Assembly (NCBI RefSeq): GCF_030013205.1
Contig: NZ_CP122648.1
Direction: 5' to 3' (one strand)
DNA: 64,000 bases
Source: Escherichia coli
GTDB taxonomy: Bacteria; Pseudomonadota; Gammaproteobacteria; Enterobacterales; Enterobacteriaceae
The notes under the pieces were generated by a model, which was not told the origin of the DNA, did no database searches, and worked only from the letters and a program-made list of their open reading frames with translations. The translations under genes and the position numbers were made by a program. Shown in pieces: positions 2,465-61,113 of this stretch; positions within the stretch are counted from its first letter, which is position 1; every line of letters starts with the position of its first letter.

Positions 2465-2830
<366 letters not shown>

Positions 2831-2846
2831 TTCTTGCGAGTTTCAG

Positions 2847-2875
2847 AAAAGGGGGCCTGAGTGGCCCCTTTTTTC
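2847..2875 (+). terminator. rpsO rho-independent terminator (gggggcc tgagt ggcccc + T-tract)
   Basis: Hairpin plus U-run directly seen 20 nt after rpsO stop. Confidence 0.85.
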
Positions 2876-3020
2876 AAGCTGACGGCAGCAATTCACTGGA
2901 AACTAATGTATTGTTGCTATGAATGATCTTCCGTTGCAGAGGTTCGCGCGGCTAATGAGAGGCTTTACCCACATTGGGCTGGGTTAGGGTTGTCATTAGT
3001 CGCGAGGATGCGCAGAAGAT
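2847..3020 (-). ncRNA. sraG: candidate antisense sRNA in rpsO-pnp intergenic/pnp leader (SraG-like position)
   Basis: Placement from remembered K-12 annotation only; not independently supported by sequence features I can compute. Confidence 0.3.
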
Positions 3021-3076
3021 CGGGTATTAACACCAGTGCCGTAAGGTACTGTCTAAGAAAGAGAAAGGATATTACA

Positions 3077-5212
3077 TTGCTTAATCCGATCGTTCGTAAA
3101 TTCCAGTACGGTCAACACACCGTGACTCTGGAAACCGGCATGATGGCTCGTCAGGCTACTGCTGCTGTTATGGTTAGCATGGATGACACCGCGGTATTCG
3201 TTACCGTTGTTGGTCAGAAAAAAGCCAAACCAGGTCAGGACTTCTTCCCACTGACCGTTAACTATCAGGAGCGTACCTACGCTGCTGGTCGTATCCCGGG
3301 TAGCTTCTTCCGTCGTGAAGGCCGCCCAAGCGAAGGCGAAACCCTGATCGCGCGTCTGATTGACCGCCCGATTCGCCCGCTGTTCCCGGAAGGCTTCGTC
3401 AACGAAGTTCAGGTTATCGCCACCGTGGTTTCTGTTAACCCGCAGGTTAACCCGGATATCGTCGCGATGATTGGTGCTTCCGCAGCACTGTCTCTGTCTG
3501 GTATTCCGTTCAATGGTCCGATTGGTGCTGCCCGCGTAGGTTACATCAATGACCAGTACGTACTGAACCCGACTCAGGACGAGCTGAAAGAGAGCAAACT
3601 GGATCTGGTTGTTGCCGGTACTGAAGCCGCTGTACTGATGGTTGAATCTGAAGCTGAACTGCTGAGCGAAGACCAGATGTTGGGCGCAGTAGTGTTCGGT
3701 CATGAACAACAGCAGGTTGTCATTCAGAACATCAATGAACTGGTGAAAGAAGCCGGTAAACCGCGTTGGGACTGGCAGCCGGAGCCGGTAAACGAAGCGC
3801 TGAACGCGCGCGTTGCTGCACTGGCTGAAGCTCGTCTGAGCGATGCTTACCGCATAACCGACAAACAAGAGCGTTATGCGCAGGTTGATGTCATCAAATC
3901 TGAAACCATCGCGACGCTGCTTGCTGAAGATGAAACCCTGGACGAAAACGAACTGGGTGAAATTCTGCACGCTATCGAGAAAAACGTTGTTCGTAGCCGC
4001 GTACTGGCAGGCGAACCGCGTATCGACGGTCGTGAAAAAGATATGATTCGTGGTCTGGATGTGCGTACTGGCGTGCTGCCGCGTACTCACGGTTCTGCGC
4101 TGTTCACCCGTGGTGAAACTCAGGCGCTGGTTACCGCAACGCTGGGTACTGCACGTGACGCGCAGGTTCTTGATGAACTGATGGGCGAACGTACTGACAC
4201 CTTCCTGTTCCACTACAACTTCCCTCCGTACTCCGTAGGCGAAACCGGCATGGTCGGTTCTCCGAAGCGTCGTGAAATTGGTCACGGTCGTCTGGCGAAG
4301 CGCGGCGTGCTGGCAGTCATGCCGGATATGGACAAATTCCCGTACACCGTACGTGTTGTGTCTGAAATCACTGAATCCAACGGTTCCTCTTCTATGGCTT
4401 CCGTGTGCGGCGCGTCTCTGGCGCTGATGGACGCAGGTGTGCCGATCAAAGCTGCTGTTGCGGGTATCGCAATGGGTCTGGTGAAAGAAGGCGACAACTA
4501 CGTTGTACTGTCTGACATTTTGGGCGACGAAGATCACCTGGGCGATATGGACTTCAAAGTTGCGGGTTCCCGCGACGGTATCTCTGCATTGCAGATGGAT
4601 ATCAAAATTGAAGGTATCACCAAAGAGATCATGCAGGTTGCGCTGAACCAGGCTAAAGGTGCGCGTCTGCATATCCTGGGCGTAATGGAACAGGCGATCA
4701 ACGCGCCGCGTGGCGATATCTCTGAGTTCGCTCCGCGTATCCATACCATCAAGATCAACCCGGACAAGATCAAAGACGTTATCGGTAAAGGCGGTTCTGT
4801 TATCCGTGCTCTGACCGAAGAAACTGGCACCACCATCGAAATCGAAGATGACGGTACTGTGAAAATCGCAGCGACCGACGGCGAGAAAGCGAAACATGCT
4901 ATTCGTCGTATCGAAGAGATCACTGCAGAAATCGAAGTGGGCCGCGTCTACAATGGTAAAGTGACCCGTATCGTTGACTTTGGCGCATTTGTTGCCATCG
5001 GCGGCGGTAAAGAAGGTCTGGTACACATCTCTCAGATCGCTGACAAACGCGTTGAGAAAGTGAACGATTACCTGCAGATGGGTCAGGAAGTACCGGTGAA
5101 AGTTCTGGAAGTTGATCGCCAGGGCCGTATCCGTCTGAGCATTAAAGAAGCGACTGAGCAGTCTCAACCTGCTGCAGCACCGGAAGCTCCGGCTGCTGAA
5201 CAGGGCGAGTAA
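3077..5212 (+). CDS. pnp: polynucleotide phosphorylase (711 aa, TTG start)
   Basis: ORF track 2990..5212; canonical N-terminus [16 protein letters not shown] begins at TTG 3077; KH and S1 domains at C-terminus. Confidence 0.95.
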
Positions 5213-25501: not shown

Positions 25502-25978
25502 TTAGTCAGGGATTTGTTCTTTTTGATCGCCAGGGACGTCCTGAATGAAAACATTCACGCCACGTTGTTTAATAAAACGTAAGTCCGTGAGATCCTGGTC
25601 ATCGACATAAACTTTACTGCTGATTTGCTTTTTCCCTTCCGAGAAATGCATATTGCCGACGTTGACATCTTTCAGGTCAATGCCACCTTCTACCAATTTA
25701 CGTACCGTTTGTGGCGTACGGCAAATCAGGAAGATCTTTTGATGCGGTGCAGCTTTGCCGATGACATTAATGGTTTTTTCGATAGTAAAGAAACGAATGC
25801 CAAAGCCGTAGGTTTCCGCGGTAATACCCATTAATTTCTGTTGAATATCATCGTTAGCGACAACATCATCCACGACTACCAGCAGATTTGCACCGATGGT
25901 AGATGTCCAGGTCACGCCAACCTGACCGTGAACCAGACGGTTATCAATACGGGTTAAGAGAATATTTGGACTGCTCAT
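25502..25978 (-). CDS. agaB: PTS galactosamine-specific EIIB component (158 aa)
   Basis: ORF track. Confidence 0.9.
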   Translation of the reverse strand: MSSPNILLTRIDNRLVHGQVGVTWTSTIGANLLVVVDDVVANDDIQQKLMGITAETYGFGIRFFTIEKTINVIGKAAPHQKIFLICRTPQTVRKLVEGGIDLKDVNVGNMHFSEGKKQISSKVYVDDQDLTDLRFIKQRGVNVFIQDVPGDQKEQIPD

Positions 25979-26144
25979 TGTGTAATCCTCACCATAAAGT
26001 TGAATAATATAATTTTTTTAAATATATTATTGTTGCGATATTGTACTGATGTATTTATTAAGGTTTAGTTATCTCCTTTACCATTAAGGCACTCCCCGAT
26101 ATTAATCGGGAAGTACATTGGGATAAATCATAAAAAACTAATGA

Positions 26145-27017
<873 letters not shown>

Positions 27018-57751: not shown

Positions 57752-57855
57752 AATTCTTGACCTCTCTTTACTTCCTTTTATGGTAAGGGGCTGGACGCTA
57801 CATTGTTAGCCAGATATTCTGCCCGGTATGTTCAAATTTCCTGAATGAGAACGAA

Positions 57856-58752
57856 ATGGCCAAAGAAAGGGCATTAACGCTGGAAGCACTACGGGTTATG
57901 GATGCGATCGATCGCCGGGGCAGTTTTGCGGCGGCGGCGGATGAGCTGGGACGCGTGCCTTCCGCACTTAGCTACACCATGCAAAAACTGGAAGAAGAGC
58001 TGGATGTGGTGCTGTTTGACCGCTCGGGCCATCGCACCAAATTCACCAATGTCGGGAGGATGTTGCTGGAGCGAGGGCGCGTTTTGCTGGAAGCCGCAGA
58101 TAAACTGACTACCGATGCGGAAGCTCTCGCGCGCGGTTGGGAAACGCATCTCACCATTGTGACCGAGGCGCTGGTACCGACACCTGCCTTTTTCCCGTTA
58201 ATCGACAAACTGGCGGCAAAAGCCAATACCCAACTGGCAATTATCACCGAAGTGCTGGCGGGGGCGTGGGAACGGCTGGAGCAGGGGCGGGCGGATATTG
58301 TTATCGCGCCGGATATGCATTTTCGTTCCTCGTCGGAGATCAACTCGCGCAAGCTCTATACGTTAATGAACGTCTACGTTGCCGCGCCTGATCACCCGAT
58401 TCATCAGGAGCCGGAACCGTTATCTGAAGTGACGCGCGTGAAATATCGTGGAATTGCGGTGGCGGATACCGCTCGTGAGCGCCCGGTGTTGACCGTACAG
58501 CTGCTGGACAAACAGCCGCGCTTAACGGTGAGCACGATTGAAGATAAACGTCAGGCATTACTGGCGGGGCTTGGCGTGGCGACGATGCCGTATCCGATGG
58601 TCGAAAAAGATATTGCGGAAGGGCGGTTGCGTGTCGTCAGCCCGGAATCGACCAGCGAGATCGATATTATTATGGCCTGGCGTCGTGACAGTATGGGGGA
58701 AGCGAAATCCTGGTGTCTGCGGGAAATTCCCAAACTTTTTAGCGGAAAATAA
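57856..58752 (+). CDS. yhaJ: LysR-family transcriptional regulator (298 aa)
   Basis: ORF track; divergent from yhaK. Confidence 0.9.
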   Translation: MAKERALTLEALRVMDAIDRRGSFAAAADELGRVPSALSYTMQKLEEELDVVLFDRSGHRTKFTNVGRMLLERGRVLLEAADKLTTDAEALARGWETHLTIVTEALVPTPAFFPLIDKLAAKANTQLAIITEVLAGAWERLEQGRADIVIAPDMHFRSSSEINSRKLYTLMNVYVAAPDHPIHQEPEPLSEVTRVKYRGIAVADTARERPVLTVQLLDKQPRLTVSTIEDKRQALLAGLGVATMPYPMVEKDIAEGRLRVVSPESTSEIDIIMAWRRDSMGEAKSWCLREIPKLFSGK

Positions 58753-58800
58753 TATTTGTTATTGTTAATAACAAGGGGCGAAATATCGCCCCAATTTTAA
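58753..58800. terminator. convergent-gene terminator region (ggggcgaaatatcgcccc hairpin; adjacent palindrome tgttattgttaataaca)
   Basis: Hairpins seen between the stops of yhaJ (+) and yhaI (-). Confidence 0.5.
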
Positions 58801-58802
58801 TA

Positions 58803-59159
58803 TTAATTTGAACCAAATTTCGGATCGTTTCCGTAACGATTGCTGCCAGAATTGCCCTCTAAACAGGCAAATACAAACAGAACTAACCAGCCAATGATCG
58901 GTACCAGATAGAGAAGCGCCCACGCACCTGAACGGTCAGTATCATGCAGACGACGAACGCACAGAGCAATGACCGGAATGATTGTTGCTGCCAGGTAAAT
59001 GAGAGAAAGGAACGGAAACTCTAAACCTAAAATCAATTGAATGACATTGATAATAGCGCCGACGATGGCGTTAATCAGAGTAAACATCCAGTACTCTTTA
59101 CGACGTGCGCGACCAGAGAAACCAACATAATTTTTTAATACGGATAAATACCACTGCAT
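58803..59159 (-). CDS. yhaI: DUF805 inner membrane protein (118 aa)
   Basis: ORF track. Confidence 0.9.
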   Translation of the reverse strand: MQWYLSVLKNYVGFSGRARRKEYWMFTLINAIVGAIINVIQLILGLEFPFLSLIYLAATIIPVIALCVRRLHDTDRSGAWALLYLVPIIGWLVLFVFACLEGNSGSNRYGNDPKFGSN

Positions 59160-59359
59160 AAAAACATCCCTTTAATTAAAAGTGACGAAAGTCTATTCCG
59201 GGTATTGTGTAAATGCTATTCGTATCTTTCTTTTTCGGATGTTATAAAGGTTTTAATATTTAAGATAAATATATGGTTGTTTTTTATATGTAATTTATAT
59301 AACGACATTGAAATATTTTAACTAAACATTAGTAAATTATTCATTCATCAACATGATGA

Positions 59360-59400
59360 TAAAAGCCGGATGAGTCAGACATCCGGCGAGCAGATTTGTT
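59360..59400 (-). terminator. yhaH terminator (gccggatg tctgactc atccggc + T-run on minus strand)
   Basis: Hairpin plus T-tract seen immediately after yhaH stop. Confidence 0.6.
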
Positions 59401-59766
59401 TTAAGGTTCCAGTTTTGGATCAGGTCCAAAGCGGTTTTCGCCTGGCGTACCCGCCTGGCAGTTAAAGACGATGATAATAAGCCAGCCGATAAACGGGATT
59501 AAGAACAGCAGTGCCCACCACGCCGAGCGGTCGGTGTCGTGCAGGCGGCGGAACTGAACCGCCCACCACGGTAAAAACACCAGAATACCGTAGATTGTTG
59601 TCAGGATGCCTTCGCCACCAGCGCGTTGCCAGCCTAACATTTTATCCAGCAGCCCCAGCACGAACGTAAAGATGATGTTGACCAGAATAAACATCCAGTA
59701 CTCTTTGCGCCGCGCACGACCCCGGAAACCGACATAATTTTTTAGTACTTTCAGATACCAGTCCAT
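59401..59766 (-). CDS. yhaH: DUF805 inner membrane protein (121 aa), paralog of yhaI
   Basis: ORF track 59401..59787; likely start MDWYLKVLKNYVGF. Confidence 0.88.
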   Translation of the reverse strand: MDWYLKVLKNYVGFRGRARRKEYWMFILVNIIFTFVLGLLDKMLGWQRAGGEGILTTIYGILVFLPWWAVQFRRLHDTDRSAWWALLFLIPFIGWLIIIVFNCQAGTPGENRFGPDPKLEP

Positions 59767-59919
59767 TTTTGCCTCAATTTTGCTCAATCACTTGTTTTTA
59801 AAGCAGCAAATTAAGAATAGACGTGAATGAAATGGCAGTAAATATTCGTTCAAGGAATTAATAAAGTGCCGTGAAGGCGCGCTAAGACTGATGACAAGCG
59901 CAAAATCGCCAGATGCGCT

Positions 59920-60015
59920 ACGCTTATCTGGCCTACGCGGCATTGTAACATATTGAATATAAACGTTTTGTAGGTTGGAGAAAACGTTCACGCCGCATCC
60001 GACATAAATAACACG
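59920..60015. repeat. REP-like palindromic units
   Basis: gatgcgctacgcttatctggcctacg and gtaggttggag...cgccgcatccgaca seen. Confidence 0.7.
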
Positions 60016-60057
60016 CACTTAGCTAATAATCAGAGGCACCTCGTAAGGTGCCTTTTT

Positions 60058-61044
60058 TTAACCGAAGCGAACATCTCGTCCATGCGGTTCATCGAGATCC
60101 TGCCACGGACCAATTGAAATAATCCCCGTAGGGTTGATGGTCTTATGGCTGCGGAAGTAGTGATTACGGATGTGATCGAAATTGACAGTTTCGGCAATCC
60201 CCGGCATCTGGTAGATATCGCGCAGGAAACCATACAGATTCAGGTAATCGCTGATGCGGTGCTTATCACACTTGAAGTGGGTGACATACACCGGATCAAA
60301 ACGCACCAGCGTGGTCCACAGGCGAATATCGGCTTCGGTTAGCTGGTTGCCGGTCAGGTAACGATGCTGGCCTAAAATCTGCTCCAGTCGCGCCAGCGAT
60401 TCAAACACTTTCACTACCGCCTCGTCGTAGGCTTGCTGGCTGGTGGCAAAACCGGCTTTATACACGCCATTGTTAACGGTGTCATAAATCCAGCCGTTAA
60501 GTTCGTCAATTTTCGTTTGCAGGGCTGATGGGTAGTAATCACCAGCTTTCGCGCCCAGCGCATCAAACGCGGTATTGAACATGCGGATGATTTCTGCTGA
60601 TTCGTTGCTGACGATGGTGTGGTTCTTTTTGTCCCACAGCACGGGAACAGTAACTCGTCCGCTGTAGTGTGGATCGGCGTGGAGATAAAGCTGATACAAA
60701 AATTCATGTTGATAGAGTGTATCGCCGGTTGCACCCGGAAAACTGTCATCAAAGGTCCAGCCGTTTTCCAGCATCAGCGGGTTCACTACGGAAACGGAAA
60801 TAAACGGTTCCAGTCCTTTGAGTTTACGCATGATCAGCGTGCGGTGCGCCCACGGGCAGGCGAGTGAAACATAGAGATGATAACGATCTTTCTCTGCGAT
60901 AAAACCGCCTGTGCCAGTGGGGCCTGGCGCGCCATCGGCAGTGAGCCAGTTACGAAATGCGGAAGCTGAACGTTGAAATTTACCGCCGGTAGATTTGGTA
61001 TCGTACCAGGTGTCATGCCAGACGCCGTCAATCAGTTGACCCAT
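60058..61044 (-). CDS. yqjG: glutathionyl-hydroquinone reductase, Xi-class GST (328 aa)
   Basis: ORF track 60058..61065; likely start MGQLIDGVWHD. Confidence 0.9.
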   Translation of the reverse strand: MGQLIDGVWHDTWYDTKSTGGKFQRSASAFRNWLTADGAPGPTGTGGFIAEKDRYHLYVSLACPWAHRTLIMRKLKGLEPFISVSVVNPLMLENGWTFDDSFPGATGDTLYQHEFLYQLYLHADPHYSGRVTVPVLWDKKNHTIVSNESAEIIRMFNTAFDALGAKAGDYYPSALQTKIDELNGWIYDTVNNGVYKAGFATSQQAYDEAVVKVFESLARLEQILGQHRYLTGNQLTEADIRLWTTLVRFDPVYVTHFKCDKHRISDYLNLYGFLRDIYQMPGIAETVNFDHIRNHYFRSHKTINPTGIISIGPWQDLDEPHGRDVRFG

Positions 61045-61113
61045 ATTTCTCTCCTCCAATAGCAAAAACGAGGAGTTTCCTCCTCGTTTTTTATCGTTAA
61101 GTATAGCGCGTGC

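Follow-up and report, generated by a model that had tools for sequence, protein, structure and literature searches.

We analysed a stretch of 64,000 nucleotides of Escherichia coli DNA (the window, whose coordinates are used throughout), in which two genes for small inner-membrane proteins of the DUF805 family lie in tandem on the minus strand. The order on that strand is yqjG, yhaH, a spacer of 241 bp and yhaI, with yhaJ approaching convergently on the plus strand (Table 1). The region 58700-60100 is 100% identical to the corresponding region of E. coli strain K_EC180, and it is matched in 5422 of the 5426 complete E. coli genomes. In K-12, the yhaH (b3103) and yhaI (b3104) genes of Pfam family DUF805 (PF05656) occupy the identical locus in the same order and with the same 241-bp spacer, and the neighbours of the K-12 interval 3252304-3253267 (yqjF, yqjG, yhaJ, and yhaK) recur in the window. 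The YhaH protein of the window is 100% identical to the O157 copy. Its yhaI, unlike that of K-12, is a non-K-12 allele that departs from the K-12 gene by 17 amino-acid changes, all of which fall in codons 48-103. The K_EC180 annotation lists yhaH and, at the position of the window's yhaI, a "DUF805 protein", and RefSeq gives the name yhaI to the K-12-type allele only.

An earlier note on this DNA had described the tandem DUF805 paralogs, and we confirmed both open reading frames and their membership in the family; the N-terminal strings quoted there for the two proteins are exact. The upper boundary of 59787 given for the pair needs correction, as it marks an in-frame upstream TTG at which the mechanical open reading frame begins, while RefSeq annotation and cross-genus alignment place the true start of yhaH at the ATG at 59766. 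Databases and papers already cover the pair, including how it is annotated and differentially regulated, so the observation contributes little that is new. Only for the strain-variable cassette and the two-allele core, described below, did we find no prior description, and both are ordinary kinds of bacterial genome variation.

Table 1. Genes, predicted sites and other sequence features of the yhaH-yhaI locus, in window coordinates.
Feature	Position	Strand	Basis
yqjG	61065..60058	-	annotation/ORF
yhaH -35-like TTTACT and -10-like TATTCT, 17-nt spacer	59842..59837, 59819..59814	-	cross-genus conservation
Invariant yhaH 5'UTR block	59803..59784	-	cross-genus conservation
yhaH, DUF805 inner-membrane protein, 121 aa, begins MDWYLKVLKNYVGFRGRARRKEYWMF	59766..59401	-	ORF; Pfam E = 4.5e-35
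yhaI cassette: yhaH last codons, hairpin, spacer, yhaI, terminator	58754..59405	-	alignment to yhaH-only genomes
AT-rich spacer (read as yhaI leader/control region plus yhaH 3' hairpin)	59160..59400	-	27.8% GC
REP-like hairpin directly 3' of the yhaH stop	59365..59387	-	terminator scan, folding, REP arms
CpxR-box-like CTAAACATTAGTAAA	59322..59336	+	one mismatch to GTAAA-N5-GTAAA
Candidate yhaI -10 hexamer TAGACT, at -36 from the ATG	59190..59195	-	aligned position, inferred only
yhaI, DUF805 inner-membrane protein, 118 aa, begins MQWYLSVLKNYVGFSGRARRKEYWMF	58803..59159	-	ORF; Pfam E = 2e-31
Hyper-divergent yhaI core, codons 46-103, TM2-TM3	58851..59024 (174 bp)	-	allele A vs B comparison
Hairpin GGGGCGAAATATCGCCCC in the yhaI/yhaJ convergent gap	58775..58792	.	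terminator-like on both strands
yhaJ	57856..58752	+	ORF/annotation

Against a Pfam gathering score of 25.7 bits, YhaI scores 109.1, YhaH 120.9 and the K-12/O157-type YhaI 111.3 bits. The two paralogs are 53% identical to one another (BLASTP, E = 2e-44), and orthologs of YhaH retain 73-86% identity across the Enterobacteriaceae. In an alignment of 39 sequences from several phyla, the columns of the motifs GRARRxEYW, P..A..RRLHD and N..G..P are invariant, and the invariant positions of the family comprise GR..R.E.W, P62, RRLHD, and N..G..P. An AlphaFold2 model (pLDDT 89.5) contains an N-terminal amphipathic helix and membrane helices at residues 20-44, 50-73 and 78-99. Comparison of the DUF805 model with solved structures returned nothing beyond generic three-helix bundles, and among the PADLOC defence-system models no family reached E <= 0.01 for YhaH or YhaI. 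Membrane insertion of YhaH has been found to be sensitive to YidC depletion (PMC3225971), and a 2024 survey still classes both genes among the uncharacterised genes of E. coli (PMC11551758). Gene conversion between the paralogs was considered as the cause of their similar N-termini and is not supported: the first 96 nt of yhaH and yhaI are 78% identical in E. coli, compared with 5' identities of 69-72% in two other species, and the N-terminal motif is conserved family-wide.

Upstream of yhaH, the promoter-like elements and the 5'UTR block are kept in E. coli, Escherichia sp. E2562 and E. marmotae, and also in Salmonella, Klebsiella and C. rodentium. Their position in the window fits the Salmonella yhaH start at -43 that was used for an SdsR reporter, in a study which found yhaH to be repressed by the sRNA SdsR (PMC5137417). 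As this conserved promoter and 5'UTR lie upstream of the gene, the yhaH promoter falls outside the spacer, in DNA of ~36% GC. The 20-nt block itself (59784-59803, CTTTAAAAACAAGTGATTGA) has one variable position and exceeds much coding sequence in conservation; it may serve as a pairing site for SdsR or another regulator.

The gap between yqjG and yhaH holds further structure. An inverted REP-like pair (GCCAGATGCG...TATCTGGCCTAC and its partner) occurs at 59900-59995, and because of it the gap is ~170 bp longer than in Salmonella, Klebsiella, and E. marmotae. Directly 3' of the yqjG stop, a hairpin at 60034-60058 has its T-run on the plus strand, opposite yqjG; the strand of yqjG carries an A-run only, and no plus-strand gene ends there. 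This hairpin is overlapped by a weak isrD-like Rfam match at 60014-60058, which scores 21.5 bits vs a gathering score of 37, and no Rfam family reached threshold in 58600-60200.

The spacer between the two genes was rightly described as very AT-rich. Its 241 bp have a GC content well below the 51% of the window, only 0.4% of all 241-bp segments in the 64 kb are as GC-poor, and the lowest-GC segment of that length (59124..59364, 23.2%) overlaps it. Loci silenced by H-NS typically exceed the average AT content of the genome by a wide margin across 200 bp or more, and the spacer does so. The spacer sequence is 95-100% identical across 4341 E. coli genomes, and the ~88 nt adjoining the yhaI ATG do not differ between the two alleles of yhaI (A and B, below). 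Elsewhere in the window, GC falls to <=30% over 241 bp in the stretches 25946-26235, 42584-43181 and 44460-44968, which may be further H-NS-type targets.

The hairpin that the earlier note had placed in the spacer is present immediately behind the yhaH stop codon, and consists of GCCGGATG-7 nt-CATCCGGC followed by TTTTATCATC (also given as UUUUAUCAUC). Its 8-bp stem includes 6 GC pairs and passes a terminator scan, and the 66 nt around it (59410..59345) fold with -19 kcal/mol (z = -3.1). The U-tract is short, with UUUU followed by AUCAUC, and the arms are those of the canonical REP elements at 926, 56752, and 56825 in the window; yhaH has been described as 'surrounded by repeat sites' (PMC11551758). 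With REP elements that act as 3' hairpins it shares both these arms and the location after a stop codon. It differs from a usual REP in being a perfect palindrome of 23 nt with a 7-nt loop and without the REP interior, and in the short T-run behind it, which resembles that of an intrinsic terminator. We read this hairpin as a putative terminator and insulator of yhaH, from which some read-through is possible since only four U precede an A. The hairpin between yhaI and yhaJ is likewise read as a putative bidirectional terminator.

Comparison across genomes suggests that the spacer and yhaI belong together. Alignment with the yhaH-only E. coli strain 4/1-1, Escherichia sp. E2562 and E. marmotae delimits a cassette of 652 bp, where yhaH-only genomes have 40 bp (matching region 1545-1625 of comparison locus L001). 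The yhaH-only junction was found in 992 genomes, or ~990 of the 5426 E. coli. In these genomes the C-terminus of YhaH reads ...KLEQE* rather than the ...KLEP* of the window, a different hairpin (AAGCACCTTGTAAAAGGTGCTT) lies behind yhaH, and the end of yhaJ follows directly. The exact 40-bp junction and its hairpin are common to yhaH-only E. coli, E. marmotae and Escherichia sp. E2562, and yhaH stands alone in the latter two as well as in Salmonella and Klebsiella. Among the yhaH-only E. coli are CFT073, NU14, NRG857C, BEN2908 and an APEC O2:K1:H7 strain, all of them strains of phylogroup B2. This phylogroup has been cited as ancestral (PMC4720273). The composition of yhaI is also unusual, with 43% GC and a GC3 of 0.42-0.47 vs 0.57-0.63 for its neighbours (in the window, 42% for yhaI and 63% for yhaH), so that the cassette combines the atypical composition and the patchy distribution by which xenogeneic loci are recognised.

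Outgroup loci, reached by protein searches and exact-sequence look-ups, present other arrangements. C. rodentium has both yhaH and yhaI at the locus, and in Intestinirhabdus alba the interval from yqjG to yhaJ holds a yhaI-like gene alone, with no yhaH. In Superficieibacter electus the locus contains a row of three DUF805 genes (145, 122 and 119 aa; 2619-4360 of locus L086), and REP-like repeats occur in the 464-bp gap before the last of them. The DUF805 copy number at this locus ranges from one to three among Enterobacteriaceae. The yhaI-like genes of C. rodentium, I. alba and S. electus each follow a terminator and ~150 bp of AT-rich DNA (25-27% GC). Beyond E. coli, the nearest yhaI-like proteins reach only 61-64% identity and are encoded at the same locus in other genera. 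A scan of genome contigs with YhaI found relatives at 45-58% identity in many phyla and no close one among Enterobacteriaceae, and a plasmid search for a close yhaI relative that could have been the donor of the cassette found none. Since a deletion could not recreate the junction seen in the outgroups, the yhaH-only state is most simply regarded as ancestral in Escherichia, and absence of the cassette from ~990 E. coli including B2, as well as from E. marmotae, Salmonella and Klebsiella, leads us to infer that the direction of change was probably a gain. Given that other genera carry yhaI-like genes at this locus, yhaI may instead be older and have been lost repeatedly.

Where yhaI is present, it occurs in two forms that differ in a short internal core. 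The core of allele A (>=95% identity to the window) was found in 2288 genomes and that of allele B (~73% identity) in 2078; allele B is the form of K-12, HS, O157:H7 and O145:H28, with >=99% uniformity across 2054 genomes. Between the window and O157/K-12, the core has a pS of 0.74, which is saturated, a dN of 0.21 and a dN/dS of 0.07. Outside the core there are no differences among the 135 nt of codons 1-45 and a single one among the 45 nt of codons 104-118, and yhaH and yhaJ have a dS of ~0.036 between the same two strains. All 17 amino-acid changes between A and B exchange one hydrophobic residue for another within or beside TM2 and TM3, and none affects an invariant column of the DUF805 family. 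Recombinant A/B YhaI proteins exist and are rare. This divergence carries the mark of a brief import by recombination from a distant homolog that evolves under purifying selection, and not that of diversifying selection.

Sites that could direct transcription of yhaI are faint. A strict sigma-70 scan of 58600-60200 gave no site with 9 of 12 consensus matches, and a weight-matrix scan in E. coli gave weak, AT-driven candidates only. The TAGACT hexamer aligns with the -10 elements (positions -38 to -43) of the best sigma-70 pairs of C. rodentium, I. alba and S. electus, and from this shared position we infer that it may be the -10 element of a yhaI promoter. The CpxR-box-like sequence is ~165 nt from the yhaI ATG, and it is weak evidence by itself because the window holds 8 such one-mismatch matches vs 3.0 expected (2.6 times shuffles). 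Two overlapping one-mismatch matches of the same kind were also observed at 57757-57781, in the divergent yhaK-yhaJ promoter region. The high-affinity H-NS motif TCGATAAATT is not enriched in the spacer, where it occurs once with two mismatches.

Ler acts mainly by antagonising H-NS. In EHEC, Ler activates yhaI 36-fold, which was the strongest non-LEE effect of the study concerned, and yhaH is absent from the list of affected genes (PMC3891560). In K-12, overproduction of CpxR raised yhaI 3.2-fold on arrays and 40.3-fold by qRT-PCR, and raised yhaH 1.9-fold on arrays (PMC2731931); a 2-fold induction of yhaJ on CpxR overproduction has been reported as well. The Ler and CpxR effects on yhaI are overexpression data and could be indirect, as many of the new members of the Cpx regulon may be according to the authors (PMC2731931). 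ChAP-seq in K-12, SE11, and SE15 found the yhaH coding region to overlap an H-NS-bound region (PMC4720273, S2 Table), a gene-level call that holds for yhaH in at least one of the three strains, with no separate entries for the spacer or yhaI.

These properties invite comparison with two known groups of genes. With the H-NS-silenced, Ler-activated genes of EHEC and EPEC (the LEE operons and a few non-LEE genes), yhaI shares AT-rich upstream DNA, strong activation by Ler, a low-GC coding sequence and a patchy distribution among strains. It differs from LEE-type genes in that neither a mobile element nor a pathogenicity island carries its locus, and in that the cassette is small and contains one gene. 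Like members of the Cpx regulon (spy, cpxP, and yebE), yhaI encodes a small envelope protein, and its ~40-fold induction by CpxR overproduction is similar to that of spy in the same experiment (PMC2731931). Unlike typical members, it has no perfect CpxR box, its one-mismatch match being located far upstream.

As a whole, we consider it likely that yhaH and yhaI are separately transcribed, that the cassette was gained late, and that its spacer is silenced by H-NS. Under this explanation, yhaH would be an old and conserved gene with its own promoter and 5'UTR upstream of 59766, ending at the REP-like hairpin (59387..59365). A single 652-bp cassette would comprise the AT-rich spacer together with the low-GC yhaI, and E. 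coli would have acquired it behind yhaH once phylogroup B2 had split from the rest of the lineage. As the control region of yhaI, the spacer would be silenced for the most part by H-NS bound to its AT-rich DNA. Expression of yhaI would be turned on by regulators able to dislodge H-NS or overcome its effect, namely Ler in EHEC and the envelope-stress regulator CpxR. Of this picture, the anatomy, the conservation and the distribution among populations and outgroups come from the present analysis, and the Ler, CpxR and H-NS data from the papers cited.

A single yhaH-yhaI operon, in which the REP hairpin only serves to stabilise or attenuate the message, no promoter lies in the spacer, and the differences in fold change reflect differential decay or partial termination, would accommodate several observations: yhaH and yhaI share a strand with 241 bp between them, the U-tract (UUUUAUCAU) is weak and the hairpin arms are REP-like, and no strong sigma-70 match was found. 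One paper moreover puts 'yhaH yhaI yhaJ' together as a putative operon (PMC2731931), a grouping that is unreliable because yhaJ is on the opposite strand, and 'yhaH' is tabulated elsewhere as its own transcription unit (PMC4720273). The operon is further at odds with the effect of Ler, which reaches yhaI and leaves yhaH off the list (PMC3891560), and with I. alba, where a yhaI-like gene without an upstream yhaH still lies behind a terminator and an AT-rich leader. We therefore think such an operon improbable. A literature search found no mapped start, Northern blot or hns-mutant expression for yhaI, and because no mapped start sites were retrieved, the case for independent transcription is indirect. 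That indirect evidence is nonetheless consistent and makes separate control of yhaH and yhaI very likely. Partial read-through of the weak yhaH terminator may occur.

It may also be that yhaI has its own promoter but that the AT-richness of the spacer is a conserved promoter architecture (a UP-element or curvature, and activator sites) rather than a substrate for H-NS silencing, with an indirect Ler effect and an incidental H-NS signal at yhaH. The conservation of AT-rich leaders before yhaI-like genes in three other genera is consistent with such an architecture, as is the lack of H-NS motif enrichment in the spacer, and the CpxR effect needs no H-NS. The principal mode of action of Ler argues for silencing instead, as does the reported H-NS binding over yhaH (PMC4720273), and a 240-bp tract at 23-28% GC is a typical H-NS substrate. 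We accordingly hold this alternative, too, to be unlikely.

Returning to the preferred explanation of a silenced cassette with its own control region, the evidence bears unevenly on the earlier proposal that the spacer provides independent and possibly H-NS-sensitive promoters for each paralog. Separate transcription is borne out by the conserved yhaH promoter, by the occurrence of each gene alone and by the Ler and CpxR data, but the yhaH promoter is outside the spacer. H-NS silencing is plausible for yhaI in light of the Ler effect, the AT-richness, and the ChAP-seq signal over yhaH. Extending it to each paralog goes too far, since nothing points to an H-NS-sensitive promoter for yhaH in its ~36% GC DNA beyond the spacer. 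The earlier proposal is partly supported, and we assign the spacer in function to yhaI alone.

Phages PhiWec188 and PhiWec190 are reported to need YhaH in order to infect (bioRxiv 10.1101/2024.11.29.626071; PMC12695924). A conjecture that we hold to be very doubtful is that yhaI is a horizontally acquired, H-NS-silenced copy of an ancient membrane protein whose three states (absent, A, and B, the latter two differing by an imported 174-bp membrane-core patch) are kept by selection and not by drift, possibly through phages in view of this role of YhaH.

More generally, the available evidence is consistent with a division of this pair into a core member, yhaH, with a deeply conserved promoter and 5'UTR and a known role as an sRNA target in Salmonella, and a strain-variable, AT-rich add-on, yhaI, whose behaviour resembles that of silenced foreign DNA and which reacts to envelope stress and a virulence regulator. 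For studies of DUF805 proteins, or of YhaH and phages, this means that strains differ in yhaI content and that K-12 and many wild strains differ in the allele they carry, and yhaI is probably silent under standard laboratory conditions.
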